NCBI GenBank assembly: GCA_964524955.1
Contig: CAZGEP010000006.1
Location: forward strand, 1-60,890
Direction: 5' to 3'
Origin: an uncultured Planctomycetota bacterium
Lineage (GTDB): Bacteria; Planctomycetota; CAZGEP01
Length of the DNA: 60,890 nt
Shown here: in pieces, positions 635 through 20,231 of the stretch
How positions within the stretch are numbered: position 1 is the first letter of the stretch
Layout: every line of letters begins with the position of its first letter
Made by a program: the position numbers and the translations under genes
The notes under the pieces: model-generated
The model's input: only the letters and a program-made list of their open reading frames with translations
What the model was told of the DNA's origin: nothing
Database searches by the model: none

Positions 635-690
635 GATACCCTGTCAAGTGCATTTATTTTATTTCTGCAATTATTTCTGATGTCTCGTAT

Positions 691-1691: not shown

Positions 1692-1726
1692 CCGGGCGCG
1701 TCTTTATACTGCAAAGACGCGCCCGG
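1692..1726. repeat. perfect 14-bp inverted repeat with a 7-nt loop
   Basis: CCGGGCGCGTCTTT-atactgc-AAAGACGCGCCCGG. Confidence 0.85.
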
Positions 1727-1835
1727 ACTGCGCCTTCAAGGGGCTGCGATCCAAGATAATCGCATTCCATCAAACATCATAATAATCTGTTTAGCAGAGA
1801 CTTAAAAATTAGTGTCACTTATTTTAACTTATTTT

Positions 1836-2186: not shown

Positions 2187-2190
2187 ATAG

Positions 2191-3447: not shown

Positions 3448-3481
3448 GTTTATTTCATGTCCTTTTGTTTCTCATGTTTTC

Positions 3482-4801
3482 TTACTGAGTGGCTTTGGCG
3501 GTTTTCTCCTCTTCCGTGTAGATGACCAGATCATTGTCGTCGATCTTTTTGTCTCCCTTGATCAGGGTGCCGACTGATACTTTTTCCGCAACCTTGGTGA
3601 GCTTGATGGTTCCCTTGTTTACATCGGTTCCACCAACTTCTCCGAGCAGGGCAGCCACGTCATCACCCAGGTCTTCGCCTGTGTCTTCGTTGACGACTTC
3701 GATGCGTTTCATGACATTAAATATCATTCCCGGTTTGAGGCCGATGTTTTTTCCGCCCGCGATCACAATCAGGGTTGTGTCACCTTTTTTGGCGGTCTTG
3801 ACCACATTGGTGCGCAGTTTGGAGTTTTTGATGGTCGGGATGTTGATGATTTCATACACGGCCTTGGCCATGCAGCCCATGATGGCCCGGTCCATCCGCG
3901 CCTTGGTCTTTCTGGAAAATCCCATGCCTCCGGCTCCGGCTTTGCCGCCGCTGGCCTTGGCGCCGCCACCGAACATACCGAACTTGAAGTTGGCCACGCG
4001 ACCGGATCGTTTGACTGAGGCAATCACAACACCGGACTCGGAATCCACGATCTTGAATGTAATGGTTACCCAGGAGTTGGATTTTCCAAAACCGAGCGCA
4101 CCCAGGCCAAAACCTTTTTTGCCGGCTCCGCCGCCTGCGGCTCCAGCGCCCCAGGAGCTGGCATCGGGTACGTATTCATTGACCACAGCATCAATCAGGA
4201 ACTGCGCACCGAGAAGACGTCCGATTTTGGGGGCGCTCTTTTTCCAGACCCGTCCGCTGGCGCCAAAGTCCTGTTCTTTGAGGATGTCGCCCATGGTCTT
4301 CTTGCTTCGTTCCACCAGGGTAAACCGGCTGGTTTTGGCAAATTCAGCCATGAGTGAGGCTTCGAGACCGGCTACCGCAATACCGGCATTGGCGCCGTGC
4401 TTGTTCATCATGCTCTGAACGGAATCCGCCACCTTGAAATCCACAATGCCGAAACGCTGTTTGGGACCGTTGTATGCAGAGTAGTTGATCAGCCACCAGT
4501 AGTCTTCGGCAATGGACTTTCCCTTCAAGTAGTAGGTGTTTTTCTTGTTGTTGTAGTTCATCTTCTTGTCAATGAGCATGACGGACTTGCCTTTGTCAAA
4601 GTAGGGGAGCCACTGGGAGGAAAGAACGGGCTGCGCATCTTCTGTTTTGACCCAGTGAGCCTTGTTGGAGCTGTCGCCCCCTCCGCTTTCGATTTCTGTA
4701 TCGTCTGAACGTCCGCCTCTTCTGTCCGCTTCCAGCGGAGATGTAAATAGAACCGCCACCACTGCCAGCAACCCCATCATCAGATATACATGCTTCTTCA
4801 T
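3482..4801 (-). CDS. CsgG/HfaB-family envelope protein with FlgT-C-like C-terminal domain
   Basis: Signal peptide; RFTLVERS...ILKEQDFG.SGRV....PKIGRLLGAQFLI motif; C-terminal GGKNIGLKPGMIFNV...DTGEDLG. Confidence 0.8.
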   Translation of the reverse strand: MKKHVYLMMGLLAVVAVLFTSPLEADRRGGRSDDTEIESGGGDSSNKAHWVKTEDAQPVLSSQWLPYFDKGKSVMLIDKKMNYNNKKNTYYLKGKSIAEDYWWLINYSAYNGPKQRFGIVDFKVADSVQSMMNKHGANAGIAVAGLEASLMAEFAKTSRFTLVERSKKTMGDILKEQDFGASGRVWKKSAPKIGRLLGAQFLIDAVVNEYVPDASSWGAGAAGGGAGKKGFGLGALGFGKSNSWVTITFKIVDSESGVVIASVKRSGRVANFKFGMFGGGAKASGGKAGAGGMGFSRKTKARMDRAIMGCMAKAVYEIINIPTIKNSKLRTNVVKTAKKGDTTLIVIAGGKNIGLKPGMIFNVMKRIEVVNEDTGEDLGDDVAALLGEVGGTDVNKGTIKLTKVAEKVSVGTLIKGDKKIDDNDLVIYTEEEKTAKATQ

Positions 4802-4999
4802 GAAAACCTCTCCTGCGGCTTGGCCGCAAAAAAATGAATGTACGTGTTGATTGCTTGAAAAAATATACAGATTTATTTTATTTACCGCGCAATTTGAGTC
4901 AAGCTGGAAAAAATTTTTAAAAAGAATTAAAGTTATGGGTTAAGTCTGCCGATTAAATAACAGATACATTTTGTTGCATACTTTTTTTGGATAGCTGAA

Positions 5000-5740
5000 A
5001 TGCAGGAGATAAACGCGGTCCAATCTTTCGCAGGTGGTTATTATAAAACCGGTTATGTTGGAAACAACCCGGAGCGGGATTCGTATGTCTCACAATCCCA
5101 AACCGCGAAAGAGTCACAGGAAAATGAGGCTGAAGCTACCGGAAAACCAGCTGAAGAGTCCAGAAAAAGATCCATCAGCGGCAAGGAACTGACCGAAGAA
5201 GAACAGCAGAAGGTGGAGAGGCTCAAACAACGGGATCGCAAGGTACGCAGTCATGAAAACGCGCATGCAGCTGCCGCAGGTCCGTACAAGCGAGGGGGAG
5301 CGCAGTTCAGCTACAAAACCGGTCCGGACGGAAAGCAGTATGCGGTCAGCGGTAATGTTTCCATTGATATGGGGTCGGAATCCAGCCCTGAGGCTACCAT
5401 TGCCAAGATGAAAACGATTCAGCGTGCAGCGATCGCCCCGCAGGACCCGTCTGCCCAGGACCGGTCTACCTATTCTGCTGCTGTCCGTCGTGAAATGAGC
5501 GCCCGACAGGCATTGCGCGAAGAGGAGCAGCTTGAACAGAAGAAACGGCGGGCAGAGACGTCCGGGGATTCAACAAACGCAACGCATACTTTGGTCATGA
5601 ATCAGTCATCTCCCCTGGCCAGAGCGGATGTTACTGAACCGCAGGAAACAAGGACCTGGGATGCCCAACAATCGTACAACCGCCAGGATATTTCCAGGTC
5701 CGGTCATGGACAGACGGCCCGGCTTGATTTTCAGGGTTGA
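5000..5740 (+). CDS. SprA-related family putative metalloprotease
   Basis: LKQRDRKVRSHENAH, YKTGPDGKQYAVSGNVSID, AAIAPQDPSAQD. Confidence 0.85.
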   Translation: MQEINAVQSFAGGYYKTGYVGNNPERDSYVSQSQTAKESQENEAEATGKPAEESRKRSISGKELTEEEQQKVERLKQRDRKVRSHENAHAAAAGPYKRGGAQFSYKTGPDGKQYAVSGNVSIDMGSESSPEATIAKMKTIQRAAIAPQDPSAQDRSTYSAAVRREMSARQALREEEQLEQKKRRAETSGDSTNATHTLVMNQSSPLARADVTEPQETRTWDAQQSYNRQDISRSGHGQTARLDFQG

Positions 5741-5760
5741 ACACACAAAAGTGATTTTCC

Positions 5761-7017
5761 ATGTGCACTGAGATTTCCCCAACCTATGATGAGATTATGC
5801 AACGTACGGAGCGTTTGGTTTCCACGCACGGTGACGTGGCAACCCGTCTTGATGCGGGGGCAAGCGAAGCCGGCAATCTGCCGCTTCCTTTTGTAGAAAT
5901 TACGGACAGTTCCGTTTCGCTGGACCGCAAACAGATCATGTTGGTAACCGGCGGTGTTCACGGCAGTGAAGAATGCGGACGTGCGGTCGCCATGGCATTC
6001 TGCGAATGGCTGGTTACGCACGGAAGATCTCACCTGAGTACACAATCGTTTATTGTCTGTCCCTGCCTGAATCCGGACGGCGCTTTGAAGAATCAGTCAC
6101 AGACCGGTACCGGTCGAAATATCTACACTTCATGCCGCATCGGCACTTCGGAGACGGATACCGCGGAAGCCGCGGCTGTGCTGAGACTGGTTGATACATA
6201 CCTGCCCGAGTGCTGCGTGGATATTCACGGCCTGGGCGGCGGCGCGGTCGGGGATACAATTTACGTAACACCGGGTCTTTCGGGAAACCTGAGCACTGCC
6301 GTGGGTTTTGACGTAGGGTATGAGATGAGCCGTGAAGCCTCTGCCAGGGGATTTGTACAGCGCGATCCCTATATGCAGCCCGACTATAATAAAACCGAGG
6401 GAGGCATTTCCTGGGTCAAGAAGACTGCGGTAGAACTCAACACGCTGAGCTTTACCGTGGAGTCCAGCGAACACATGCTTCCGATCAACGAATCTGAATC
6501 CAGCGGGCTGTGCCGCATGATCCGGCTGGTACAGATCGGAGAGCGCGCGCAATGGTACCAGCCCTATGCCGGTTATCCAGTGGATATCCTCACGGACAAT
6601 GGGGCGGTAGCCCTGATGCCGCACGGAACCTTTCCAGGAGAACGCAGGCAATCCCGCAGGGAAATTATGACCGCGATTCATGAAGGCGGCATCTGGAATG
6701 TGGAGCGGGATGTCGCCGACCATGCTGCTGGTTTCGATCGCACCGCGACCGCTCGCCTGATCTGTAGAGAGGAGCTCCGATCGTATCCATCCCGCTTTAC
6801 CATCCAGTTGATGCTGGACCGCAGGGCGTGTGTGCAGCAGGTCCGGTTCAACGGATCAGAACTCAATCCAGATCCGATTCACGGATTTAAAGAGCGACTG
6901 GGACCGGAAGGGCGGTTTGTACGGATTCATATCAACCGCAAGCCGAAGTCCGGCGAGAATATCGCAGAGGTCCAGTACAGAATGCCGGTCCAGCCGCACG
7001 ATCCTATGACAGTCTGA
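5761..7017 (+). CDS. M14 family zinc carboxypeptidase-like protein
   Basis: GGVHGSEECG (HxxE), PCLNPDG, DIHG, FTVES. Confidence 0.8.
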   Translation: MCTEISPTYDEIMQRTERLVSTHGDVATRLDAGASEAGNLPLPFVEITDSSVSLDRKQIMLVTGGVHGSEECGRAVAMAFCEWLVTHGRSHLSTQSFIVCPCLNPDGALKNQSQTGTGRNIYTSCRIGTSETDTAEAAAVLRLVDTYLPECCVDIHGLGGGAVGDTIYVTPGLSGNLSTAVGFDVGYEMSREASARGFVQRDPYMQPDYNKTEGGISWVKKTAVELNTLSFTVESSEHMLPINESESSGLCRMIRLVQIGERAQWYQPYAGYPVDILTDNGAVALMPHGTFPGERRQSRREIMTAIHEGGIWNVERDVADHAAGFDRTATARLICREELRSYPSRFTIQLMLDRRACVQQVRFNGSELNPDPIHGFKERLGPEGRFVRIHINRKPKSGENIAEVQYRMPVQPHDPMTV

Positions 7018-7113
7018 AAATAATCAAATATTCCCTTGAAAAAAGGTGTAAAACGGGTACAGTTACCGTTTGACTGTCCTTTATTTTCTGAACTTTTTAT
7101 GGAGGATTTACGA

Positions 7114-7287
7114 ATGGGATGTTGTGACGAACATTCGGAAAAGATGTGCGCGGCGGCCTGCTGTCCCTGTAACCTGGATCTGGAAAAAATCAAGGCTCTT
7201 GTAAAAGACGCCAAGTTCATCTGCAAGGCGTGCGGCCGGGTGGCTGCAGAAGAAAAGAATCTCTGCCAGCCGGTTCCCCTGGACTGA
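7114..7287 (+). CDS. small Cys-rich protein (57 aa)
   Basis: GGAGG RBS at 7101; MGCCDEHSEKMCAAACCPC...FICKACGRVAAEEKNLCQP. Confidence 0.7.
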   Translation: MGCCDEHSEKMCAAACCPCNLDLEKIKALVKDAKFICKACGRVAAEEKNLCQPVPLD

Positions 7288-7317
7288 AGTTTCTGGGGGG
7301 ATGCTCATCCATCATGG

Positions 7318-7854
7318 ATGTGCCGGAAACAAAGAGGGAGGGATTGCAGCTGGACTGGGAGAGCGCTGGCCATGGGCCTGACCCTGCCCCGCCTTCATAT
7401 TGCGGATATCCACCTGGTATACAATCTGCTTGTCGGACTTAAGGAGGTGGATCCCGAGCGTGTGGGTATCAGCGGTCTTTCCGGCGGCGGAACTCTGACG
7501 TACCTGACTGCGGCGTTTGACACCCGGTTCAAGGCTGCAGCCGTGTTCTGTGGAACCGGCAGTTACCAGGATTACGCCATGGACGGCGGATGTGGCATGC
7601 AGGTGGTTCCGGGATGGTTTCCGTACGGCGATACATCGGAAATATTTTCCATGATCGCGCCCCGGCCTCTGCTGGTGGCGCAGGGCAGGCTGGACGCAAC
7701 ATTTAACGTGATCCGGACCGCGGAAATGGTGAACAGGGCTCGGTCGGCCTATAGTGCGGCTGGTGCTCCGCAGCGGATCCAGTTTGAAACGCCTGAACTG
7801 GCGCATGAGTATGACGCGGATCTTGCCGCTGAGTTCTTTCTCCGGTGGATATAG
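7318..7854 (+). pseudogene. alpha/beta hydrolase (acetyl xylan esterase / dienelactone hydrolase-like), N-terminally truncated
   Basis: EVDPERVGISGLSGGG nucleophile elbow, IAPRPLL, C-terminal HEY. No room or RBS for the usual N-terminal half. Confidence 0.6.
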
Positions 7855-7913
7855 CCTGATTGATTCTGAAAAAATTTTGAAGGAAGACCGGTCCAGCCGG
7901 ACAACAAAATAAT

Positions 7914-8347
7914 ATGAAAATGGCTTCAGGAAAAAACATCCTTCACTTGTGTCTGCTGGTTATTCTTTTCTTTTCAGTCACGCTTTCGGCTGCTTCAAAA
8001 ACACACAGACGCATTGCTGCACCTCAACAAACTCGAGTCCCGGAGAACCGACTCAAAACTCACCGCGGACATCTTTCACAAAAAAGCCTGTTCCTGTTTC
8101 TATATCGCATCCTACACGTTGTCTCTTGAAGCCTTTCGGAAATACCTGAAACTGAATTTTTCGGAACCTTGACAAGGAACCCCCACAGTTTATCTGCGAC
8201 GTCAATTACTTTCTCGGGCTCTGCTTTCTGCACAACAAGGAGAAAAAAACAGCCGCGCGGTATTTCAAAAAATGCACCCAGTCTGGAAATGTGAATTCAG
8301 AACAGATTCTCGGTGCAGAATATTTCCTAAAAATAATAAGCAGGTAA
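7914..8347 (+). pseudogene. degraded secreted TPR protein with NlpI-like C-terminus
   Basis: Signal-peptide ORF 7914..8129; a separate downstream segment reads LDKEPPQFICDVNYFLGLCFLHNKEKKTAARYFKKCTQSGNVNSEQILGAEYFLKIISR*. Confidence 0.45.
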
Positions 8348-10426: not shown

Positions 10427-10454
10427 TTGACTTTATGCACACTCCGGATATAGT
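10427..10454 (+). promoter_or_regulatory. sigma70-type promoter of the BMC operon
   Basis: TTGACT-16 nt-TATAGT, about 55 nt upstream of pduL. Confidence 0.5.
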
Positions 10455-10507: not shown

Positions 10508-11260
10508 ATGGTGAATGAGAAAGGTTTAGCATCGTATTGTCAGGACTGCGGTTTATGTTCAGTGGATAAACCTGCGCCTGACTATTCCAGCGCATCCGAT
10601 AACGGCAGCAATGACCTCGCGGATATCATTTCCAGGGAAATTCTCCGCAGCCTCAAGCAGGAACCCGCAGCAGACCCCGGATCCAAAACAATTCCCATTG
10701 GGGTGTCCAACCGCCATGCACATTTGACGGAAAAGACATTTAAATATCTCTTTGGCGATGATACGGAACTGAGCGTGTATCGCGAGTTGTACCAGGAAGG
10801 TGAATTCGCCTCTGAACAGACCATTACGGTAGCCGGAAACAAGATGCGGGCCATTCAGAACCTGCGGATTCTCGGCCCCTTGCGGAAATACGACCAGGTC
10901 GAACTTTCCCTGACCGATGCCGTTCAGATCGGCATCAATCCGCCGATTAAGAATTCAGGCGATCTGGCCGGCGGCGCGCCGCTGACACTGATTGGCCCCA
11001 AACGCTCGCTGTACATTGAAGAATGTGCGATTATCGCCAACCGCCACATCCATATGACTCACCGGGATGCAGATGCGTTCGGCGTAGCGGACGGCGATTT
11101 CTGCAAAATCCGTGTGGGCGGTGAAAAGGGAATTATCTTTGAGAACGTACTGATTCGTATCAACGACGACTGGAAACTTCAACTGCACCTGGACACAGAT
11201 GACGCGAATGCTGCGAACATCCGCTGTTCCATGTCAGCGGAATTTTACGGAAAGATGTAG
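10508..11260 (+). CDS. pduL: phosphate propanoyltransferase (PTAC) with N-terminal encapsulation peptide
   Basis: IPIGVSNRHAHL, LRILGPLR..DQVELSLTD, IIANRHIHMT, LHLDTDDANA. Confidence 0.95.
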   Translation: MVNEKGLASYCQDCGLCSVDKPAPDYSSASDNGSNDLADIISREILRSLKQEPAADPGSKTIPIGVSNRHAHLTEKTFKYLFGDDTELSVYRELYQEGEFASEQTITVAGNKMRAIQNLRILGPLRKYDQVELSLTDAVQIGINPPIKNSGDLAGGAPLTLIGPKRSLYIEECAIIANRHIHMTHRDADAFGVADGDFCKIRVGGEKGIIFENVLIRINDDWKLQLHLDTDDANAANIRCSMSAEFYGKM

Positions 11261-11267
11261 AAGCGCT

Positions 11268-11555
11268 ATGCAATTCGGCAAAGTCACTGGATCTATTGTA
11301 TCAACCAGAAAATCCGAGAATATTACGGGCAGGCGGCTGCTGGTGGTTGAGCATGTGGACGAAAACCTGAAAACGGCCGGCAAAACCTATGCCTGTGTGG
11401 ACTCGGTGGGTGCCGGGATCGGCGATATTGTTCTCTGCTGCTCATCGTCTTCGGCCCGAAAAACCGTCCAGACCAAAGACACATGTACGGACAACACGGC
11501 CGTGGCAATTGTAGACATGATTTCCTGCAGCGGAAAAGATATTTACAGAAAATAA
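11268..11555 (+). CDS. BMC vertex protein (BMC-P, EutN/CcmL family)
   Basis: MQFGKVTGSIVSTRK...DSVGAGIGDIVL...SSARK...VAIVD. Confidence 0.92.
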   Translation: MQFGKVTGSIVSTRKSENITGRRLLVVEHVDENLKTAGKTYACVDSVGAGIGDIVLCCSSSSARKTVQTKDTCTDNTAVAIVDMISCSGKDIYRK

Positions 11556-11588
11556 TTGTTGCACACAGAAGAGGTATCCGCATTGAAT

Positions 11589-11894
11589 ATGGTTTCACTC
11601 GAAAAAATCATTAAACTGGTTTCCACCGGCGTGGTCCGGGAGCTCCACAAACAGGGTGTTCAGGTGGTTTCCGGAAACGCTGAAATCATACCTGCGGACA
11701 GTTCAGCCAGCGGCATGAGCGTAAAGACAGAAAAAATCGACATGAGCAGTTACAAGACCCCGGTGCTTACGGAGCAGCATCTGTCCCGACTCCACGAGCT
11801 GACCGGTACGGTAGTCGTTCCCCGCGGCACGGTTATTACGCCCAAGGCCAGGGAAGCGATCAAGGCAAAGAAACTATACATACGGTTTGAATAA
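11589..11894 (+). CDS. small BMC-associated protein with N-terminal encapsulation-peptide-like helix
   Basis: LEKIIKLVSTGVVREL, then VLTEQHL...VVVPRGTVITPKAREAIK. Confidence 0.75.
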   Translation: MVSLEKIIKLVSTGVVRELHKQGVQVVSGNAEIIPADSSASGMSVKTEKIDMSSYKTPVLTEQHLSRLHELTGTVVVPRGTVITPKAREAIKAKKLYIRFE

Positions 11895-11919
11895 ATTTTC
11901 TGTTCAATTGGAGGTGAAC

Positions 11920-12198
11920 ATGGACAAAGTAACGCTTGGGTTTGTAGAAACCCGTGGAAACACCGGTTCGGTTATGGCCATTGATGCCATGCTGAAAACA
12001 GCGGATGTCGAACTGGTGAAGAAGGTCGGCATCGGCGGCGGCTATGTAACGGCCGTTGTGCGCGGCGAAGTCGGTGCAGTCAAGTCCTCTGTGGAAGCGG
12101 GCGCAGAATTCGCTGCCAGAGTGGGAGAGCTGGTTTGCGCAAATGTAATCCCATCCGCGCACCAGGATGTATTTAAACTAATCGGAATCAGCAAATAG
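11920..12198 (+). CDS. BMC hexamer shell protein (BMC-H)
   Basis: LGFVETRG...AIDAMLKTADV...IGGGYVTAVVRGEVGAVK; GGAGG RBS. Confidence 0.95.
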   Translation: MDKVTLGFVETRGNTGSVMAIDAMLKTADVELVKKVGIGGGYVTAVVRGEVGAVKSSVEAGAEFAARVGELVCANVIPSAHQDVFKLIGISK

Positions 12199-12209
12199 GA
12201 GGAACCCCC

Positions 12210-12509
12210 ATGCAGGAAGCTCTCGGTGTAATTGAAGCCATCGGGTTTGCCACCGCCATGGAAGCGGCGGACGCCGCGGTCAAAGCGGCAAATATTAAAC
12301 TCGGCGAATGGCTTAGAGTCGGCGGCGGTAAAGTAAACGTGATCGTTCGCGGCGACGTGGCCGCAGTCAAGGCAGCGGTTGAAGCCGGTGTGGCATCGGC
12401 ATCCGGTATCGGAGAAGTCTGCGCTCAGTGCGTGATCCCGAGACCCACAGATAAGCTTGTACCCACGTTTCCCATTGATCCGGCAAAAAAGACCCGGTCC
12501 GGAAAATAA
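12210..12509 (+). CDS. BMC hexamer shell protein (BMC-H)
   Basis: ALGVIE..G...AADAAVKAANI...VRGDVAAVKAAV...VIPRP. Confidence 0.95.
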   Translation: MQEALGVIEAIGFATAMEAADAAVKAANIKLGEWLRVGGGKVNVIVRGDVAAVKAAVEAGVASASGIGEVCAQCVIPRPTDKLVPTFPIDPAKKTRSGK

Positions 12510-12565
12510 GTACCGGAAACACCGGTTTTCAACATTCTGAATCCAGAAAAAACAGGAGAATACCA

Positions 12566-12841
12566 ATGGCTCAGATTAAATCAATAGGCGTTCTGGAGAC
12601 AAGAGGGTTTGTTCCTCTTATCGAGGGAGCGGACGCCGCACTCAAAGCCGCAAATGTCGACCTGGTCGAATGGCGGCAGGTCGGCAGCGGGATTGTTTCC
12701 TTTACCGTGGAAGGTGAAGTCGCTGCCGTTCGTTCGGCAATTGATTCCGCCCGTTCTGCGGCATCCGCTGCCGGTGAGGTGGTTTCAGACATCGTCATCC
12801 CCAGACCCGTGGATGAACTGAAGACAACCTATAATCAGTAA
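12566..12841 (+). CDS. BMC hexamer shell protein (BMC-H)
   Basis: IGVLETRG...ADAALKAANV...VGSG...GEVAAVRSA...VIPRP. Confidence 0.95.
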   Translation: MAQIKSIGVLETRGFVPLIEGADAALKAANVDLVEWRQVGSGIVSFTVEGEVAAVRSAIDSARSAASAAGEVVSDIVIPRPVDELKTTYNQ

Positions 12842-12859
12842 GGCAGGCGGAGGCATGAC

Positions 12860-13129
12860 ATGATTTTTGCCAAAGTAACGGGCAGTGTTGTATCAACCCA
12901 GAAAGACGAAAAGCTTTCCGGGAAAAAGCTTTTGCTCTGCCGGGAAACCGACTGCAGGGGCAAGGCCATGGACACGTACCATGTGGCCGTGGACGCGGTG
13001 CAGGCCGGAGAAGGTGACTTTGTTCTTGTCTCCTACGGATCCGCTGCCCGCATGACCGATGTAACCAAAGATCTTCCCATTGACGCCGTGGTCATGGCCA
13101 TTATCGACGGCATTGAACTCAGCGGATAA
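12860..13129 (+). CDS. BMC vertex protein (BMC-P, EutN/CcmL family)
   Basis: MIFAKVTGSVVSTQK...VAVDAVQAGEGDFVLV..GSAAR...PIDAVVMAIID. Confidence 0.95.
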   Translation: MIFAKVTGSVVSTQKDEKLSGKKLLLCRETDCRGKAMDTYHVAVDAVQAGEGDFVLVSYGSAARMTDVTKDLPIDAVVMAIIDGIELSG

Positions 13130-13141
13130 GGCGGTGATTTC

Positions 13142-13402
13142 ATGAAAATCGGCAGAGTTATCGGAAAAGTCTGGGCCGAACGGAAAGTCAAACAACTGCA
13201 CGCCTGCCGGCTGCACATCCTTCAGCCCCTGACATCTGAAATGAAGAAAGCCGGTCAACCGCTGGTAGCGGCGGATCCGAAAAACATTGCCGGCGACAAG
13301 GACCTGGTGGTCTATGTTACCAGCACGGACGCAGTGCAGGCCTTTGACGGCATTGCCCCGGTAAATGCGAGCGTCGTGGAGCTCATTGACTCAATAGACT
13401 GA
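13142..13402 (+). CDS. BMC vertex protein (BMC-P, divergent)
   Basis: MKIGRVIGKVWAERK...VAAD...AG..DLV...PVNASVVELID. Confidence 0.88.
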   Translation: MKIGRVIGKVWAERKVKQLHACRLHILQPLTSEMKKAGQPLVAADPKNIAGDKDLVVYVTSTDAVQAFDGIAPVNASVVELIDSID

Positions 13403-13433
13403 CGCGCTTTTATTCAATCACAGAGGTTTACAG

Positions 13434-13712
13434 ATGTTTCTGGCCCGAATCAAGAATTCAATCACAGCAACAGAAAAACACCCCGCCTACAATGCCAAAA
13501 GGGTATTCTGTGTACGCACCATCCGGCCCGACGGCAGCGAAACCGGCAAAGAATGGGTGGCCATGGACTACGTGGGCGCCGGCATCGGCGATATCGTGGT
13601 CTGCGGCGGTGCCCCCGGCGCGGCCCAGGAAGTATTTTCCCTGGACAAAGCCCCTATCCGGACCCTGATCATGGCCATCGTGGACCGCATTGACCACCGG
13701 GACGACCTATGA
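13434..13712 (+). CDS. BMC vertex protein (BMC-P, divergent)
   Basis: MFLARI...ITATEKH...VAMDYVGAGIGDIV...PIRTLIMAIVD. Confidence 0.9.
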   Translation: MFLARIKNSITATEKHPAYNAKRVFCVRTIRPDGSETGKEWVAMDYVGAGIGDIVVCGGAPGAAQEVFSLDKAPIRTLIMAIVDRIDHRDDL

Positions 13713-15010
13713 CGCTTGAACGCATTGCTCAAAACGGAATCGTAGGCGCAGGCGGCGCGGGATTTCCTGCAGACGTTAAACTCAACGCTCACCCCGAATT
13801 CCTCATCCTCAACGGGGCGGAATGCGAACCCCTGCTCCACAAAGACGAAGAACTCATTCGAAACCACACCGAGGACGTAATTCGGGGAATGCGAATGGCC
13901 ATGGACCTGACCGGTGCGCAAAAAGGCATTGTGGGCATCAAGGGGAAGCACCGGGAAATCATTGAAAAGCTTCGGGATACCGTTCCCCCGGAAATTGACA
14001 TTACTGAAATCGGCGACTTTTATCCGGCCGGAGATGAAATCACGCTGATCTACGTGACCACCGGACGGATTGTTCAGCCCGGCCAGCTGCCGCTCAGCGC
14101 CGGGTGCGTGGTGCAGAACCCCGAGACCCTGTACAACATTGCCATGGAAAAACCGGTTACGGAGAAATTCCTGACCGTGGCCGGTGCGGTCAAGAACCCC
14201 CGTACCATCAATGTGCCGATTGGTACGCGCTATTCGGACATTCTTTCTCATTTTGAAATTACCACCCGCAATTATGTGATTCGCACCAACGGCCTGATGA
14301 TGGGGCGGCTGGACACATCGCTGGATATCCCGGTCACCAAGACCACAGGCGGGATCATTGTGTTGCCTGCAGACCATCACTGCGTCCGGATGTATGAACG
14401 CTACAATAATCCGCAGAGCACGGTGCGCATTGCCAAGGCCGGGTGTGATCAGTGCAGTTTCTGCACCGAACTTTGCCCCCGGTACCTGCTCGGCCATCCA
14501 GTGCGCCCCGAGACCGCCATGCGAAACCGAATGTTTGCTTCCCAGGGCAGCGATCCGGTGAACGCAGGCAACCTCTTCTGCTGCGAATGCAACCTTTGCA
14601 CGTTTTATGCGTGTCCGGAAAGCCTGGACCCCAAAGGCTCTACCGTGATTGAAAAACGGATTCTCGCCGGTCGAAAGGACAAATGGGAAGGCCGGCCCGT
14701 CAAGGCGCATCCCATGGCCGATTTCCGGAGGGTTCCGACCCAAAAACTCATGCAGCGCCTGGACGTCATGGGCTATGAAGACCACGCGCCCTTTTCTGAC
14801 CTGACAGTGGATGTCCAGCGGGTTACGCTGCCCCTGAAACAGCACGCAGGCAAACCCGCGCTCGCAACAGTCACAGAAAATCAGAATGTAGCTGCCGGGG
14901 AGCGGGTTGCGGAAAGAGACGGTCTGATCTCCGCAAACATTCATTCTCCGGTGCGCGGAATGGTCCGGCGGGTAACTGAAAACGAACTTATTATCGAGAG
15001 GCACGCATGA
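13709..15010 (+). CDS. pduS: PduS/RnfC-like flavin and 4Fe-4S oxidoreductase
   Basis: GIVGAGGAGFP, NGAECEPLL, YPAGDE, CDQCSFCTELCP and CCECNLC...CP, C-terminal LKQHAG...IHSP. Confidence 0.9.
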   Translation: MTLERIAQNGIVGAGGAGFPADVKLNAHPEFLILNGAECEPLLHKDEELIRNHTEDVIRGMRMAMDLTGAQKGIVGIKGKHREIIEKLRDTVPPEIDITEIGDFYPAGDEITLIYVTTGRIVQPGQLPLSAGCVVQNPETLYNIAMEKPVTEKFLTVAGAVKNPRTINVPIGTRYSDILSHFEITTRNYVIRTNGLMMGRLDTSLDIPVTKTTGGIIVLPADHHCVRMYERYNNPQSTVRIAKAGCDQCSFCTELCPRYLLGHPVRPETAMRNRMFASQGSDPVNAGNLFCCECNLCTFYACPESLDPKGSTVIEKRILAGRKDKWEGRPVKAHPMADFRRVPTQKLMQRLDVMGYEDHAPFSDLTVDVQRVTLPLKQHAGKPALATVTENQNVAAGERVAERDGLISANIHSPVRGMVRRVTENELIIERHA

Positions 15011-15567
15011 AACCGGGAAACGCGGTCGGCGTCATCGAACTGGCAAGTTTACACAAGGGCTTTGAAGTCCTGGACAATATTCTGACATCCACGTCCGTTG
15101 AAAAACTTCTTGCCCGCACCATTTGCTCCGGCAAATATGTGATCATTGTTCGCGGGGAAGTGGCGGATGTGGAAACAGCGGTCTCCATTGCCGAAGAAAC
15201 CGGTAGCTTTGCCGTGGTCAGCGCACTTGTGATTCCCAGTGTGGAAGAGAAAATCTTTCCCGCTATTGCCGGCACCACAACATTGGATTCAGGCAGCGTC
15301 GGTGCCATTGCTGTAATCGAAACGTTTTCCGTGGCTGCGGCCATCAAGGCTGCGGATTTTGCGGCCAAGGAAGCAGACATCACGATTCTGCGTATTCACG
15401 TGGCTATGGCCATCGGCGGCAAGGGGCTGATCGTACTGACCGGTGATATTGAAGCCATCCGGTCCGCAGTGCCCCCGGCAGTGGAATTCATCGGCCAGGA
15501 GGGAATGCTGGCCGGATACAGCATTATTACGGATCCGCACGAAGATGTATTGCGGGATCTGCTTTAA
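15007..15567 (+). CDS. pduT: tandem-domain BMC shell protein (BMC-T, PduT-like)
   Basis: Two BMC domains; TICSGKY carries the Fe-S ligand Cys; AIGGKG. Confidence 0.9.
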   Translation: MKPGNAVGVIELASLHKGFEVLDNILTSTSVEKLLARTICSGKYVIIVRGEVADVETAVSIAEETGSFAVVSALVIPSVEEKIFPAIAGTTTLDSGSVGAIAVIETFSVAAAIKAADFAAKEADITILRIHVAMAIGGKGLIVLTGDIEAIRSAVPPAVEFIGQEGMLAGYSIITDPHEDVLRDLL

Positions 15568-15619
15568 TTCAACATAGTCGCCAAAGGCGACGTACGTTTT
15601 TTCTTCAAGGAACATACCA

Positions 15620-16426
15620 ATGAGTGCATATACCAACACAGGCGGTGAATGGGAACTCAGAAAAAATATCATCGAAGTGGGCCGACGAATCTGGACCCGC
15701 GGTTATGTGGCTGCCAATGACGGCAACATCACCGTCAAAATCAGTGACAATGAAATCCTGACCACGCCCACCGGTGTGAGCAAGGGATTCATGACTCAGG
15801 ACATGATCATCAAAATGTCCATGGACGGAAAGATCCTCTCCGGCGGCAATGGAAAGTATCGTCCCTCCAGTGAAGTCAAGATGCATCTGGAGGTCTACGA
15901 ACAGCGGGATGACATCTGTTCCGTAATCCACGCACATCCACCGTACTGCACCAGTTTTGCCGTGGCCGGCATTCTTCTGGACAAATGCGTGCTGCCCGAA
16001 GCGGTTCTGACCCTGGGCGCTGTTCCCATTGCCAAGTATGGAACGCCCTCCACCCGGGAGATTCCGGATTCTATTCAGCCGCTCATCCAGAACTGCGATG
16101 CGGTTCTGCTGGCCAACCACGGTGCTCTTACGCTCGGTACCGATCTATTCAATGCCTATCACAAGATGGAAACCCTGGAGCATACCGCGAACATCACCTT
16201 CTTTGCTATCAACCTGGGCAACGTGAATATGATACCGGGTGACGAAGTCCGAAAACTCATGGAACTCAGAGAGAAAATGAATATCCCCGGCCGGATCAGC
16301 ACCTGTGCATCAGGGATCGCTCCGGCGCAGCCGGCTGCCCAGCCAACGTCTGCCGCGTCTGAGGAGCAGATACAGGAGCTGACCCGCAAGGTTCTGGAAC
16401 GAGTCAAGGATGCCACAGGAAAATAA
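15620..16426 (+). CDS. class II aldolase/adducin family protein (fuculose/rhamnulose-phosphate aldolase-like) with C-terminal encapsulation peptide
   Basis: DGNIT, PSSEVKMHL, HAHPP, LLANHG; linker followed by EEQIQELTRKVLERVK. Confidence 0.92.
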   Translation: MSAYTNTGGEWELRKNIIEVGRRIWTRGYVAANDGNITVKISDNEILTTPTGVSKGFMTQDMIIKMSMDGKILSGGNGKYRPSSEVKMHLEVYEQRDDICSVIHAHPPYCTSFAVAGILLDKCVLPEAVLTLGAVPIAKYGTPSTREIPDSIQPLIQNCDAVLLANHGALTLGTDLFNAYHKMETLEHTANITFFAINLGNVNMIPGDEVRKLMELREKMNIPGRISTCASGIAPAQPAAQPTSAASEEQIQELTRKVLERVKDATGK

Positions 16427-16429
16427 ATC

Positions 16430-17602
16430 ATGAAAATCCTTATCGCCAATCCCGGAAGCACGTCCTTCAAATGCAAACTCCTTGACATGGATCTGGACAA
16501 GACCCTCTTTTCCGCGACCATTGAGCGGATCGGCGATCAAGAGGGGATCTGTACCTTTGAATGGCAAGGGGATGATCCGGTCGTTGAGCATATGGCCATT
16601 GCCGATTATCCGGCTGCACTCCAGCTCACGCTGGACAATCTGAGCAAACGCATGTCCGTGGATGACGTGGCAGCGATTGGATTCAAGACCGTACTGGCCA
16701 AAGACGTAAGCGGATGCGTGGAGCTGACTGACGATGTACTTACGGCCATGGAAGATTACCTTCCCCTGGCACCGGTCCACAACCGGGTCTACCTGGACGT
16801 GATTTATGCGTTTAAACAAGTCACCTCTCTGCCCCTGGTCGCACTCTTTGAAACATCCTTTCATACCGAAATTCCACCGGAAGCCTTTCTCTACGGCATT
16901 CCCTATCGGTATTATGAGAAATACGGAATCCGTAAATACGGATTTCACGGTGCGTCTCACCGATACATCAGCGAATACACCGCTGCGAATCTGGCTGGCG
17001 GACGCACCGACATCACGGTGATCTCCTGCCACCTTGGAGGCAGCTCTTCGGTCAGTGCAATACGAAACGGCGTTTGTGTGGACACCTCCATGGGTATGAG
17101 TCCGCAGAGCGGCCTGCTCAATGCCAAACGCAACGGTGACCTGGACACCTTTGCCCTGCTCTACCTGATGGAGCGCGAACAACTCTCCATTGACCAGGCT
17201 CGCAGCATGCTGATCTCCGAAGGTGGCGTGCTGGGAATCTCAGAGCTGAGTGCGGATTTCAGAGACATCGAGGCGGCCATGGATCAGGGAAACGAGAAGG
17301 CCTGTATTGCGTTCAACACCTTTTGCTATTATGTTCGGCGCTATATCGGTGAATATCTTGCGGTCCTTAACGGTGCGGATTACATTGTCTTTACCGCAGG
17401 CATGGGGGAGAACCAGCCGCGCGTCCGCACGGAGATTATCAAAAACATGGAGAACCTGGGCATCCGCATTGATGAGCAAAAGAACGCACAGAACAGTGAA
17501 ATCATCTCTGCGGCGGATTCCAGAACCACTGTAGCCGTGGTCCCGACCAATGAAGAAAAGATCGTGGCCCGATCAGTCAGAGAATTCATGGAAAACCGGT
17601 AA
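16430..17602 (+). CDS. ackA: acetate/propionate kinase
   Basis: ANPGSTSFK, LAPVHN, FETSFH, YGFHGASH, CHLGGSSS, DTSMG, FTAGMGEN, PTNEE. Confidence 0.95.
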   Translation: MKILIANPGSTSFKCKLLDMDLDKTLFSATIERIGDQEGICTFEWQGDDPVVEHMAIADYPAALQLTLDNLSKRMSVDDVAAIGFKTVLAKDVSGCVELTDDVLTAMEDYLPLAPVHNRVYLDVIYAFKQVTSLPLVALFETSFHTEIPPEAFLYGIPYRYYEKYGIRKYGFHGASHRYISEYTAANLAGGRTDITVISCHLGGSSSVSAIRNGVCVDTSMGMSPQSGLLNAKRNGDLDTFALLYLMEREQLSIDQARSMLISEGGVLGISELSADFRDIEAAMDQGNEKACIAFNTFCYYVRRYIGEYLAVLNGADYIVFTAGMGENQPRVRTEIIKNMENLGIRIDEQKNAQNSEIISAADSRTTVAVVPTNEEKIVARSVREFMENR

Positions 17603-17611: not shown

Positions 17612-18700
17612 ATGAACATTCTTGCACTCGAACCTTATTTCGGCGGCAGCCACCAGTCCTTTCTCAACGGATGGATGGCAGAGAGCAGGCATAACTGGAA
17701 ACGGCTCAGCCTTCCTGCATATAAATGGAAATGGCGCATGCGCCACAGCGCTGTTACCCTGGCCCGGGAAACAGAAGCGCTGCTTGAAGATGGCCGTGCC
17801 TTTGATTTGGTTTTCTGTTCAGACATGCTCAACCTTGCCGAATTCAAGGGACTGGTTCCCCGGGCCGTCCGGGACCTGCCTTCGGTAATCTACTTCCATG
17901 AGAATCAGCTGACCTATCCGGTCCGCAAAGAAGACGAACGGGACTACCACTATGTCCTGTCCAATATGATCGCAGCGCTGGCTGCGTCTGCAGTATGGTT
18001 CAACTCCGGGTTTCACCTGAATTCCTTTCTAAGCGCTCTGCCCGTTTTTTTGCAGAAAATGCCGGATTATAACGGTCCGGAACCGGTCGAACGGATCCGC
18101 AAAAAATCCGCTGTCCAGTACCCGGGCATCCGGATTCAGAAAAACAAGGCATGCGTTTCGAACGGACCGGTACGCATCCTCTGGGCCGCACGATGGGAGC
18201 ACGACAAAAACCCGGAAGACTTCTTTGAAGCTCTCAAAGAGATTAAACGTACGAATACAGAATTTCGACTCAGCGTTATCGGCGAACGTTTCAGAGACTG
18301 TCCGGACGTCTTCACCTGGGCAAGGGAATACTTCAGCGAGCATATTGATCACTGGGGGTTTATCGAGGATCGCAGCCAGTATCATCAGATCCTGAGTCAA
18401 GCTGACATCATAGTCTCTACAGCCCATCACGAGTTCTTCGGCATCAGTGTGATCGAAGCCGCTGCATCGGGCGCAGTGCCGCTGCTGCCCCGGCGGCTTT
18501 CTTATCCTGAACTGTTCGGCGAAAAGGAGGCCTTCTTCTATGACGGCAGTGTCCAGGACCTGGCAGAACAGCTTGCTCAAATCTGCACACAGAAAAGATT
18601 CAGCGAGCGTTCCGAAACGACCGTATCCGCAACCAGGCGTTTTGACTGGCCAGTCCGGGCCCGGGAGATGGATCAGGCCTTGGCGGACTGCCACACCTGA
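17612..18700 (+). CDS. DUF3524/GTDC1-like GT-B glycosyltransferase
   Basis: EPYFGGSH, WKWRMR, YFHENQLTYP, RWEHDKNPE, HEFFGISVIEA. Confidence 0.9.
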   Translation: MNILALEPYFGGSHQSFLNGWMAESRHNWKRLSLPAYKWKWRMRHSAVTLARETEALLEDGRAFDLVFCSDMLNLAEFKGLVPRAVRDLPSVIYFHENQLTYPVRKEDERDYHYVLSNMIAALAASAVWFNSGFHLNSFLSALPVFLQKMPDYNGPEPVERIRKKSAVQYPGIRIQKNKACVSNGPVRILWAARWEHDKNPEDFFEALKEIKRTNTEFRLSVIGERFRDCPDVFTWAREYFSEHIDHWGFIEDRSQYHQILSQADIIVSTAHHEFFGISVIEAAASGAVPLLPRRLSYPELFGEKEAFFYDGSVQDLAEQLAQICTQKRFSERSETTVSATRRFDWPVRAREMDQALADCHT

Positions 18701-18800: not shown

Positions 18801-20231
18801 ATGATCCGTGAAATAAAACCAGTCACGGTAGACTGCACCCGGAAGACCGGGGAATTCAAGCGGATTCACGGAACCAACGTGGGACCGGTATACCTTCAAG
18901 GTGCCTATGACGCATCCGAGTATTTCAAACAGGCCGGATTTACTACTGTCCGTCTCCACGACTGCCCGTACACCTGTTTTGATGTTGTGGATATTCCCTT
19001 TATCTTTCCGCTCTTCCACCTGGACTGCACGCAGCCGGAAAACTACAACTTCCGCCCCACAGACAGTTATGTGCAGAGTGTACTGGACTGCGGCTGCGGC
19101 ATTGTCTATCGTCTGGGTGTCAGCATTATGAAACGTCCTGAGTTCTCAGGGTACACAGATCCGCCCCCGGATTATGATAAATGGGCGGACATCTGCATTC
19201 AGGTGATTCGGCATTACAACCAGGGTTGGGCAGGCGGCCTCCATCACAACATACGATACTGGGAAATATGGAACGAAGCAGAAAACGGTCCCAAACAATG
19301 GAACGCATCCTACGATGAATTCATCCGCTTCTTTATCACCACAGCCAAACGCATCAAAGCGGCATGTCCGGACATAAAAATCGGTGGGCCGTCCTTTAAC
19401 GGAACGTTTGTACAAAGTCGTGACAAACTGCATACCTTTCTTCCGCTTCTCAAAGAAGCCGACTGTCCACTGGATTTCATCAGCTGGCATGCGTATCCGG
19501 ACCGGGCCGGTCAAATTATTGAGGGAGCCATTGAGGTCAGAGAAATTCTTGATGATTACGGATTCACACAGACCGAGAGTCATCTCAATGAATGGAATCT
19601 TGCCCCCACCGGTGGATTCGCAGAGATGCGCAAAACGCCCGAGAGACAGATGGCGTTTTTTGATTACAAGAATGGACCGGTCGGATGTTCCCTGCCCGCC
19701 TCCTGCCTGATCGCTTTTCAGGATCTGCCGCTGGACATGACCAACTATTACTCATCCAAGAATTTCAACTACGGCATCTTCAAACAGCTGGGAACACCGC
19801 ACAAGCCTTTTTTCACCTTCAAGGCCTTTAACACATTCCTGAATCAATTCCCGGAACGACTGAACGTCTCGGGCAGCGATCCGGACCAGGGTCTCGGTGT
19901 GCTGGCCGGCACAAATCCAGAAAAAGACGCACTGGGCCTGTTTGCAGCCAATCACGGATCAGACAACAAGCAGTGGCACATCCACCTGAATAATCTGTCT
20001 CCGGACATGTCTGCGATTGATTTCAACATCATTGATCAAACCCGCAATCTGGAACCGGCGGAATCCGGAGCCACGCTTACCAAGAACGAATTGATCCTTG
20101 AGCTGCCGCGCCACACCGTCGGACGGGTTACGATCCGGAAACCGGAGATTTCCAAAACAGCACCGGCCCGTGCATCGTCTGAAAAGACAGGCAAGGATAG
20201 TGGTCAGGACAGGAAAGAACAGTGGTATTAG
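18801..20231 (+). CDS. glycoside hydrolase, GH39-like (clan GH-A)
   Basis: VRLHD, YWEIWNE (acid/base), DFISWHAY, LNEWN (nucleophile). Confidence 0.8.
   Translation: MIREIKPVTVDCTRKTGEFKRIHGTNVGPVYLQGAYDASEYFKQAGFTTVRLHDCPYTCFDVVDIPFIFPLFHLDCTQPENYNFRPTDSYVQSVLDCGCGIVYRLGVSIMKRPEFSGYTDPPPDYDKWADICIQVIRHYNQGWAGGLHHNIRYWEIWNEAENGPKQWNASYDEFIRFFITTAKRIKAACPDIKIGGPSFNGTFVQSRDKLHTFLPLLKEADCPLDFISWHAYPDRAGQIIEGAIEVREILDDYGFTQTESHLNEWNLAPTGGFAEMRKTPERQMAFFDYKNGPVGCSLPASCLIAFQDLPLDMTNYYSSKNFNYGIFKQLGTPHKPFFTFKAFNTFLNQFPERLNVSGSDPDQGLGVLAGTNPEKDALGLFAANHGSDNKQWHIHLNNLSPDMSAIDFNIIDQTRNLEPAESGATLTKNELILELPRHTVGRVTIRKPEISKTAPARASSEKTGKDSGQDRKEQWY

Follow-up and report, generated by a model that had tools for sequence, protein, structure and literature searches.

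The window analysed here, the whole 60,890-nucleotide contig C6 (CAZGEP010000006.1) of an uncultured Planctomycetota bacterium, carries at positions 10508-17602 a bacterial microcompartment (BMC) operon in which no aldehyde dehydrogenase (AldDH) is encoded. The contig belongs to a 5.0-Mb metagenome-assembled genome (MAG) of 379 contigs. The operon probably forms a metabolosome of the type catalogued as MIC4 that works as a complete aldehyde-processing organelle, with its AldDH supplied from a second contig, C135, which would make the organelle a natural chimera. That the organelle would be complete is suggested by the one missing core enzyme being encoded elsewhere in the genome.

The operon and an aldehyde dehydrogenase gene on another contig

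Four genes of the assembly match PF00171. The only one in the window, at 23558-25039 on the minus strand, adjoins a class-III aminotransferase; with 505 bits on TIGR01722 (cut-off 448) it is typed as a methylmalonate-semialdehyde dehydrogenase and not as a BMC-type AldDH. Two further matches, on C168 and C57, were considered as candidate BMC AldDHs and ruled out, both being ProA. The fourth is the enzyme on C135, and with it the distally encoded AldDH that the first-pass annotation had offered as one option was found:

C135, 201-1646: PduP/EutE-type AldDH, 481 residues; NF011927 605 bits against a cut-off of 403

When the C135 AldDH was aligned with seven relatives (8 sequences), an N-terminal peptide of about 20 residues was found to be conserved, here including SETMVRDVVSQVLGEL, followed by an Ala/Pro/Ser-rich linker that varies in length; in the domain after it, the catalytic Cys283 is invariant (8/8 aligned sequences). 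Encapsulation peptides (EPs) are described as terminal amphipathic helices of about 15-18 residues, which a linker of low conservation, with many small and hydrophilic residues, separates from the domain (PMC4594438; Aussignargues 2015). The same peptide-linker-domain architecture is present in the AldDH, in PduL and in the aldolase. The genome-wide search recommended in the first-pass annotation, for an EP-bearing PduP/EutE-type AldDH and for satellite BMC loci, thus yielded the enzyme on C135 and no satellite, as every BMC and EutN domain of the assembly falls within the 10508-17602 cluster.

The operon comprises 13 open reading frames, all on the plus strand and placed as in the first-pass annotation, whose gene identities were confirmed by Pfam and NCBIfam profiles. 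Identities in the following list refer to genome G001, which contains the closest relative of the operon.

10427..10454, plus strand: sigma-70-like promoter TTGACT-16 nt-TATAGT in the 88-bp gap 5' of PduL; hexamers 10/12 consensus
10508..11260, plus strand: PduL-type phosphotransacylase; Pfam PTAC 226 bits, NF011652 230 bits against a cut-off of 209
11268..11555, plus strand: BMC-P 1, extra pentamer outside the triplet; EutN_CcmL 92 bits
11556..11894, plus strand: small conserved protein, 112 residues; N-terminal EP-like helix with a hydrophobic moment of 0.57
11887..12198, plus strand: BMC-H 1; Pfam BMC 79 bits, 82% identity
12210..12509, plus strand: BMC-H 2; Pfam BMC 88 bits, 72% identity
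12510..12565, no strand: 56-bp gap at the position of the G001 AldDH, from gene-order comparison with G001 contig C31
12566..12841, plus strand: BMC-H 3; Pfam BMC 89 bits, 81% identity
12860..13129, plus strand: BMC-P 2, first of the triplet; EutN_CcmL 98 bits
13142..13402, plus strand: BMC-P 3, second of the triplet; EutN_CcmL 61 bits
13434..13712, plus strand: BMC-P 4, third of the triplet; EutN_CcmL 71 bits
13709..15010, plus strand: PduS homologue (MNdh); Complex1_51K 139 bits, Fer4_17, SLBB, RnfC_N
15007..15567, plus strand: PduT-type tandem BMC-T (BMC-T^SE); Pfam BMC 104 bits in 2 stretches
15620..16426, plus strand: class II (FucA/RhaD-like) aldolase, the signature enzyme; Aldolase_II 161 bits
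16430..17602, plus strand: acetate/propionate-family kinase (AckA); Acetate_kinase 369 bits, TIGR00016 361 bits against a cut-off of 293

The gaps between successive genes are 7, 0, -8, 11, 56, 18, 12, 31, -4, -4, 52 and 3 bp, and there is no room for an additional enzyme inside 10508-17602. No aldehyde or alcohol dehydrogenase was found among the 13 genes with Pfam and NCBIfam profile searches, so that the first-pass annotation was right about the absent dehydrogenases as well as about the tight packing.

PduL is extended at its N-terminus by 60 residues, in which a CxxCxxC motif occurs together with an EP-like amphipathic helix, DLADIISREILRSLK, with a hydrophobic moment of 0.68, above the 99th percentile of the background (mean 0.25, 95th percentile 0.50, by a simple helical measure). 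The aldolase ends in an A/P/S-rich linker followed by the EP-like helix IQELTRKVLERVKDA, the hydrophobic moment of which is 0.66. In the PduS homologue (rnfC subfamily 221 bits in NCBIfam, below the cut-off of 246) the nucleotide loop reads GAGGAGFP, and there are Cys clusters at two places, CDQCSFCTELCP and CCECNLCTFYACP. The BMC-T aligns over its full length with the solved PduT structures 3pac (E 3e-38) and 3n79 (E 1e-35), and its pore cysteine is retained ('ticsgk' aligned against PduT 'ticpgk'); this Cys is presumably the ligand of an Fe-S cluster.

The CxxCxxC motif of PduL, YCQDCGLCS, stands ahead of the EP-like helix within residues 1-60 (10508-10690) and could be a metal or Fe-S site. 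For BMC-P 1 the listed open reading frame is 11199-11555; the EutN_CcmL match starts at residue 24, i.e. the family match begins at 11268. The 112-residue protein (11556-11894) gave no Pfam match at E <= 0.001; its C-terminal part weakly resembles TIGR02536 (Eut-associated hypothetical; E 2.6e-5, 24 bits, below cut-off), and a homologue with 43% identity occupies the same operon position in G001. Downstream, also on the plus strand, follow a glycosyltransferase gene (17612-18700), which starts 9 bp past AckA, has a QTMAN_N (tRNA-queuosine mannosyltransferase N-terminal) domain and may be co-transcribed with the operon, and then a GH39 gene (18801-20231).

Type assignment, related loci and NAD+ recycling

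MIC4 is catalogued with 15 loci, and its listed enzymes are a phosphotransacylase (PTAC), an acetate kinase (pfam00871), an aldolase (pfam00596) and an N-terminal-EP AldDh (PMC8217296; Nat Commun 12:3809, Supplementary Data 2). Here, too, genes for PTAC, aldolase and kinase are in the main locus. [quoted passage not shown] The window has likewise three BMC-H and a BMC-P triplet plus an extra BMC-P, as do MIC4 loci such as that of Melioribacter roseus (MROS_0096-0104), and its PduS gene (13709-15010) overlaps the PduT-type BMC-T gene (15007-15567) by 4 bp with the pore Cys kept. Among the matches listed, the closest aldolase homologues come from MIC4-listed phyla, which according to the catalog are Actinobacteria, Bacteroidetes, Calditrichaeota, KSB1, Firmicutes and Ignavibacteria (PMC8217296). 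Two differences stand against these likenesses: Planctomycetes are not among the MIC4 phyla given there, and the N-terminally tagged AldDH, part of the MIC4 main locus, is here encoded on C135 alone and is of PVM lineage. Judged by gene content and order, and not by the catalog's hidden Markov model (HMM) classifier, the operon is a MIC4-type locus apart from the AldDH. The atypical or new AldDH-less subtype inferred in the first-pass annotation is therefore not upheld, the gene set matching MIC4 except for the AldDH and an AldDH with a putative EP being encoded on C135.

A PVM microcompartment was reportedly characterised in Planctopirus limnophila by Erbilgin et al. in 2014. The published chemistry of PVM, a type of Planctomycetes and Verrucomicrobia, uses a class II aldolase, AldDH, PTAC and acetate kinase, with lactaldehyde arising from fucose or rhamnose (PMC4207490, PMC8217296, PMC4594438); the same lactaldehyde chemistry is predicted here, and the C135 AldDH, outside the window, belongs to the PvmJ lineage. 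The loci themselves differ. PVM is described with two BMC-H, three BMC-P and no BMC-T, whereas the window has three BMC-H, four BMC-P, one tandem BMC-T and PduS; a DeoR regulator, the flavoprotein PvmL and the Ldh-type dehydrogenase PvmO are listed for the PVM locus, whereas no DeoR or Ldh/Mdh-type gene is present in the window; and the aldolase is closer to that of the MIC4-like G001 than to the PVM aldolase of genome G008. Like the operon in the window, the ACI type of Acidobacteria has a BMC-P triplet and a class II aldolase tagged with an EP at its C-terminus, and its AldDH gene is separate from the main locus. It differs in being catalogued for Acidobacteria only, in its hydroxyacid dehydrogenase, in an AldDH EP near the C-terminus and in a core described without PTAC and acetate kinase (PMC8217296), whereas the window contains no pfam00389/02826 gene, the putative EP of the C135 AldDH is N-terminal and the host shares its phylum with the PVM-bearing G008. 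ACI had been named in the first-pass annotation as an exception lacking AldDH; in the catalog the ACI AldDH is placed on a satellite locus. MUF3 of Clostridia has the AldDH, PTAC, acetate kinase and pfam00596 aldolase with PduS beside a PduT-type BMC-T, but is catalogued with a single BMC-P and for Clostridia only (PMC8217296), in contrast to the four BMC-P including a triplet in the window.

Scanning genome contigs for the aldolase gave seven loci, one of which (L018, aldolase alone) was set aside. In G001, the closest relative with 67% aldolase identity, the operon is divided between contigs C31 and L012. C31 has the order PduL, BMC-P, small protein, BMC-H, BMC-H, AldDH, BMC-H and contig end; L012 starts inside the next BMC-P and continues with two BMC-P, PduS, BMC-T, a FAD-linked oxidase, aldolase and AckA. 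The window order equals that of G001, but 56 bp (12510-12565) are found at the AldDH position and 52 bp at the oxidase position. The FAD-linked oxidase (GlcD-like, 471 residues; L012 2732-4147), between BMC-T and aldolase, and an RpiR-family regulator 5' of PduL in G001 (L031 3835-4710) are without counterpart in the window operon. In the lists of shell proteins that accompany the catalog, locus-tag numbers skip one gene between two same-class BMC-H in the MIC4 loci of both Melioribacter roseus and KSB1 4484_87 (PMC8217296); this slot, known from locus-tag numbering alone, is consistent with the AldDH layout of G001.

A PduP-type AldDH is present in 5/5 related genomes searched. It lies inside the locus in G001 and G005 and on a separate contig, with a lone BMC-P directly before it, in G002, G003 and G004, so that its position is variable and a distal AldDH is common in the group (in-locus in 2/5, on another contig in 3/5 genomes). 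The consistent AldDH absence for which the first-pass annotation would have surveyed such loci was accordingly not observed. The idea that PduS/T and an in-locus AldDH are mutually exclusive (four loci with PduS/T and without AldDH, two with the reverse) was dropped, since G001 has both.

PduS homologues have been renamed MNdh, for metabolosome NADH dehydrogenase, and are presented with a PduT homologue as an NAD+ recycling module (PMC11626177; Sutter 2024; PNAS 121:e2414220121). This study counts 361 loci with MNdh/BMC-T^SE and without AlcDh, and states that MNdh is found solely in BMC types containing AldDh; in the catalog, the EUT2B and EUT2D types also have the PduS/T pair and no alcohol dehydrogenase (PMC8217296). 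The window shares with the published module the adjacent pair, the Fe-S cysteines, the pore Cys and a locus without alcohol dehydrogenase. In PVM-type genomes the pair is reported as a satellite in 18/20 (PMC11626177) and was so in 5/5 checked here, whereas in the window it is inside the main operon. The missing alcohol dehydrogenase would thus fit the published PduS/PduT NAD+ recycling. The two Fe-ADH genes of the genome (C55, C5) showed no EP-like terminal extension, and a homologue of the PVM Ldh-type dehydrogenase of G008 was not found in the assembly, which is 91% complete. Because MNdh is restricted to AldDh-containing types, the PduS/PduT pair argues for an AldDH partner and not for a substitute, and the suggestion in the first-pass annotation that the aldehyde is oxidised through the PduS/PduT conduit gives way to the published role of the pair in serving an AldDH.

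An organelle truly without a CoA-acylating AldDH is for these reasons very improbable. In such an organelle the aldehyde would exit, or be oxidised via PduS/PduT, or PduL and AckA would run toward acyl-CoA, and the C135 AldDH would be cytosolic or a relict. The operon without an AldDH or a gap able to hold one, the modest hydrophobic moment of the C135 AldDH peptide and the undetected shared regulation of the two loci speak in its favour. However, PduL requires acyl-CoA, MNdh/BMC-T^SE is published solely for AldDh-containing BMC types (PMC11626177), the C135 enzyme keeps the peptide-linker architecture that is conserved in PVM in-locus AldDHs, and the PduP-type AldDH is kept in all five related genomes. 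In addition, separate cytosolic AckA and PduL copies are encoded in the genome, so that those of the operon are not needed for general acetate metabolism.

These copies include a 772-residue fusion of a cyclic-nucleotide-binding domain, an acetate kinase and a PduL-type phosphotransacylase on C177 (L153 5810-8128, plus strand). Its neighbours are two Rnf-Nqr genes, FMN_bind and NQR2_RnfD_RnfE genes and pyruvate kinase, and C177 begins with the same repeat as C135. This second PTAC/AckA was considered as a PVM remnant and rejected, as it is a cyclic-nucleotide-binding AckA-PduL fusion beside Rnf and pyruvate kinase genes.

Ancestry, genome integrity and proposed chemistry

The ancestry of the operon and of the C135 AldDH was compared using G001 and G008, a genome of the window's own phylum that served as PVM reference. 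The G008 locus is a canonical PVM locus with the order DeoR, PTAC, two BMC-H, AckA, BMC-P, unknown, AldDH, BMC-P, unknown, BMC-P, class II aldolase and Ldh-type dehydrogenase. The identities were as follows:

PduL: 58% to G001, 36% to G008
Aldolase: 67% to G001, 38% to G008
AckA: 56% to G001, 42% to G008
PduS: 56% to G001, no homologue found in G008
BMC-H: 72-82% to G001, 52-56% to G008
C135 AldDH: 39% to G001, 57% to G008

In a maximum-likelihood tree of 15 AldDHs, the C135 enzyme groups with the G008 PVM AldDH and eight Planctomycetota/Phycisphaerae-labelled sequences (100/100), and the G001 enzyme groups on a long branch with two Bacteroidota in-locus AldDHs (100/99). The AldDh of MIC4 is said to be closest to MUF2/MUF3, and the clustering of the C135 AldDH with PVM was obtained in a tree without MUF2/MUF3 references. 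By RpoB the host stands at 54% identity to G008 and at 48% to G001, so that G001 is not a close relative. Among the best 120 aldolase homologues, the named ones were labelled 'bacterium' (6), KSB1 (3), Bacteroidetes/Bacteroidota (2) and Ignavibacteria (1), and no Planctomycetota name occurred among the 120 listed. The named homologues of the C135 AldDH were instead assigned to Planctomycetota, Planctomycetes, Phycisphaerales and Phycisphaerae, with one Devosiaceae. A PduS homologue was detected in 8 of 400 sampled genomes of the phylum; in the 5 of these that were examined it forms a lone PduS/BMC-T pair with no further BMC gene within about 9 kb. Taken together, these comparisons suggest that the operon is of foreign ancestry, that the AldDH and its neighbour on C135 would be the remains of the lineage's own PVM locus, and that the organelle may be a natural chimera.

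The difference in phylogenetic affinity between the AldDH and the operon could also be expected from a binning or assembly artefact, in which C135 or C6 comes from another organism of the sample and the two loci were never in one cell. The fragmentation into 379 contigs, the 4.8% contamination and the two ProA genes of the MAG fit this alternative too, and CysS on C6 is uninformative. Nevertheless we consider it unlikely. The tetranucleotide composition of both contigs is typical, with correlations to the whole assembly of 0.988 for C6 and 0.964 for C135; among 168 contigs of at least 10 kb, ranked from the least typical, C6 is 164th and C135 103rd. The operon segment (r = 0.83, GC content 0.54) and the two C135 genes (r = 0.72, GC content 0.55) are within about 1 standard deviation of equal-length random pieces. 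A multi-copy repeat of C6, and likewise one of C135, recurs at 10 or 11 further contig ends in the bin. The C135 layout, in which the AldDH and a terminal PVM gene are 9 bp apart, was not seen in 39 metagenome loci (minimum 1314 bp) or in 8 linked genomes, and such a collapsed layout makes functional sense only if the shell genes of the cell come from elsewhere. Finally, the junction between the AldDH and its neighbour is spanned exactly by a 1027-bp contig of an independent assembly, run X1, at about 4x depth; as X1 may be the source sample, this confirms the junction and not the binning. In runs X2-X4 the pieces matching C135 were short or diverged, and among the public runs listed no RNA data set came to light.

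Several observations on the repeats and duplicated genes accompany this analysis. Positions 1-52 of C135 are the terminus of a repeat that also occurs at 10 other contig ends and has a depth of about 72x against about 4x (about 18-fold) in run X1; since C135 begins with this terminus, a mobile or repeated element lies about 150 bp 5' of the AldDH start codon. In the window, 42275-43738 (minus strand) encodes a DDE transposase (DDE_Tnp_1_4), pieces of which element are found at the ends of 11 other contigs. The ProA (glutamate-5-semialdehyde dehydrogenase) genes are located at 1099-2349 of L003 on C168 and at 1054-2112 of L004 on C57, one of them truncated by a contig end, and are a sign of either duplication or MAG contamination. 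CysS was tried as a phylum marker for C6 and discarded.

The promoters of the two loci were also compared. The AldDH on C135 is preceded by TTGACA-16 nt-TATAAT, the hexamers of which match the consensus at 12/12 positions. The operon promoter and the AldDH promoter have a composite pattern in common, consisting of TTTAGC, an optional base, TTGAC, 10-20 bases and CCGG.TATA.T, and their local alignment score of 27 was reached by 21/2000 shuffles (17.2 +/- 2.9). A third, partial match to this pattern, 5' of an AraC regulator and a GH106 rhamnosidase, is a lead only. Shared regulation of the operon and the C135 pair was dropped as a claim, because the motif was post hoc and an unbiased search did not pair the promoters. 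Of a co-regulated, EP-bearing AldDH elsewhere in the genome, which the first-pass annotation had named as a finding that would speak against its subtype, the AldDH was thus recovered and the co-regulation was not.

A number of points weigh against a complete organelle with a C135-encoded AldDH. For the peptide at the N-terminus of the C135 AldDH the hydrophobic moment is just 0.38, and packaging of the enzyme into this shell is a prediction from the tag alone. C135 ends 200 bp 5' of the AldDH inside the multi-copy repeat, so that the true upstream neighbours are not readable. The composite promoter pattern, although unique to both sites in 5 Mb, was derived post hoc from the two promoters, and in unbiased blastn-short searches each promoter was missing among the other's best 8 genome-wide matches. 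The MAG, with its incompleteness, 4.8% contamination and two ProA genes, leaves room for a mis-binned C6 or C135 or an unassembled BMC gene, and CysS on C6 is 40-44% identical to all four genomes matched and does not discriminate phyla. To these are added the assignment to MIC4 by content and order and an aldolase that scores below the cut-off of every NCBIfam equivalog.

On the reading of a complete organelle with AldDH from C135, the following chemistry would be carried out. Inside the shell, the EP-tagged class II aldolase would cleave L-rhamnulose-1-phosphate or L-fuculose-1-phosphate into dihydroxyacetone phosphate and lactaldehyde. The EP-tagged C135 AldDH would convert lactaldehyde, CoA and NAD+ to lactyl-CoA and NADH, the EP-tagged PduL would recycle CoA with formation of lactyl-phosphate, and AckA would yield lactate and ATP. 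NADH would be re-oxidised by the PduS homologue, the electrons exiting through the Fe-S cluster of the PduT-type BMC-T, and because they leave in this way no alcohol dehydrogenase would be needed. That the AldDH is encapsulated in this shell, that the two loci are co-expressed and what the substrate is are points that we infer.

The substrate is not fixed by the aldolase sequence, because all NCBIfam equivalog scores are below cut-off. On C39 (L069 8198-12262, minus strand) an FGGY kinase (rhaB), L-rhamnose isomerase (rhaA, 680 bits) and lactate racemase (larA) are found in a row with no aldolase, and an L-fucose isomerase (fucI) is encoded on C107. Since the sole other PF00596 gene of the assembly, adjoining a second FGGY kinase, encodes a 238-residue AraD-like protein, the operon aldolase is the only FucA/RhaD-like enzyme of the assembly. 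The best-supported reading is that rhamnulose-1-phosphate or fuculose-1-phosphate would be converted via lactaldehyde to lactate, as proposed for PVM; the lactate racemase beside the rhamnose genes fits lactate as the end product.

The companion of the aldehyde dehydrogenase and the origin of the chimera

The second gene on C135 directly follows the AldDH:

C135 (L011), 1656-2882, plus strand: 408-residue protein, starting 9 bp after the AldDH; no Pfam match

It belongs to a family with at least 8000 homologues, the best 120 of which are 64-78% identical, and 13/13 homologues with an organism name are from Planctomycetota, Phycisphaerae or Phycisphaerales. An AlphaFold model built on a shallow alignment is of low confidence (pLDDT 58.6, pTM 0.61) and has the form of a beta/alpha barrel. 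Foldseek matched it to class I (DhnA-type) aldolases, namely M. jannaschii ADH synthase (E 2.7e-8), LsrF, tagatose-1,6-bisphosphate aldolase, sulfohexulose-1-phosphate aldolase and archaeal FBP aldolase, and its protein-atlas neighbours are Planctomycetota clusters, one of them auto-named as a fructose-bisphosphate aldolase family. The protein thus looks like a class-I-aldolase fold in this model. A candidate Schiff-base Lys233, in a predicted strand at 231-235, is invariant in 14/14 aligned sequences. In this family a core of roughly 340 residues is followed by a low-complexity linker that varies in length and by a conserved C-terminal peptide with the consensus PDFxKMTxEERLAYHRxRL. Although arranged as linker plus helix, this peptide was rejected as a canonical EP, since its hydrophobic moment of 0.24 is at the level of the background mean; it may be a motif of a different kind. 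When solved structures were searched with its profile, the sole match was the ubiquitin-interacting motif region of proteasome subunit S5a (E 0.12, not significant).

To place the gene in its usual context, 77 metagenome loci were collected, and the 41 with at least 3 kb upstream were judged. In 41/41 a PVM-type operon ends with the 408-residue-family gene, which is preceded by an Ldh-type gene (21), a class II aldolase (19) or a BMC-P (1). Shell genes are present in all 41 and an AldDH upstream in 38/41; the distance from the AldDH was 1314-6607 bp (median 2978) in the 39 measurable loci. Among 400 other genomes of the phylum, the family was found in 19, of which 18 also carry a PVM-type AldDH, i.e. 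in 18/33 genomes with this AldDH against 1/367 without it, a contrast that overstates the association, as related genomes do not count as independent cases. Both genes are linked in 8 sampled genomes, 3.2-4.1 kb apart, and the 9-bp spacing of C135 was seen in 0/39 metagenome loci and 0/8 linked genomes. The Pvm names given in the catalog table are B, D, E, G, H, J, K, L, M, N and O, none of which is the 408-residue protein (PMC8217296). C135 is without the genes usually found between the AldDH and the 408-residue-family gene, which are two BMC-P, a PvmL-like gene, the aldolase and an Ldh-type gene, and the pair looks, from its gene content, like a collapsed PVM locus.

Other arrangements of the family were noted as well. 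On L091, a metagenome contig of 12322 bp, the last BMC-P and the 408-residue-family gene of a PVM-type locus (172-8101) have no class II aldolase between them, and PduS and BMC-T follow directly; the class-I-aldolase-fold protein may be the sole aldolase of that locus. Outside the phylum sample, family members with 58-59% identity occur in G003 and G004 (L044 and L045, labelled 'bacterium' and 'uncultured Cytophagia bacterium'), where the gene is apart from the BMC genes and the MIC4-like loci have a satellite BMC-P with the AldDH.

A PVM locus reduced to two genes beside a repeat, and an operon that compared with G001 is without AldDH and FAD-linked oxidase, could alternatively point to decay: the operon would be a decaying or silent import that lost its AldDH, and the PVM remnant a separate relic. 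We regard this as quite unlikely. The 13 frames are open and tightly coupled, with Cys clusters, pore Cys and EP-like tags intact; the operon and AldDH promoters retain their near-consensus and consensus hexamers; and the operon supplies the sole FucA/RhaD-like aldolase of a genome that retains rhaA, rhaB and fucI. How a working chimera might have arisen can be stated only tentatively, and the following course is possible though not favoured. A horizontally acquired MIC4-type operon, its own AldDH already lost, would have taken the place of most of the lineage's ancestral PVM organelle, namely of its shell, PTAC, aldolase, kinase and NAD+-recycling dehydrogenase; only the PVM AldDH and the gene that ends the PVM locus would have been retained.

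As the organelle cannot be upheld as AldDH-less, this locus poses no challenge to the metabolosome paradigm. What is new is a MIC4-type operon in a phylum where MIC4 is not catalogued, with the MIC4 AldDH apparently replaced by a PVM-lineage enzyme in an enzyme-only distal locus, which would be a natural test of the interchangeability of tags and shells. Loci like that on C135 are outside the catalog's satellite definition because they contain no shell gene, and further 'incomplete' BMC loci may have the same explanation. The companion of the AldDH, a conserved unnamed protein of predicted class-I-aldolase fold that ends PVM operons, is also new and may be a missing part of the PVM type. If the proposed history is true, the organism would be a natural example in which cargo carrying the tag of one compartment type functions inside another type's shell, and the 408-residue neighbour would be an overlooked core PVM component, perhaps a second aldehyde-releasing enzyme.

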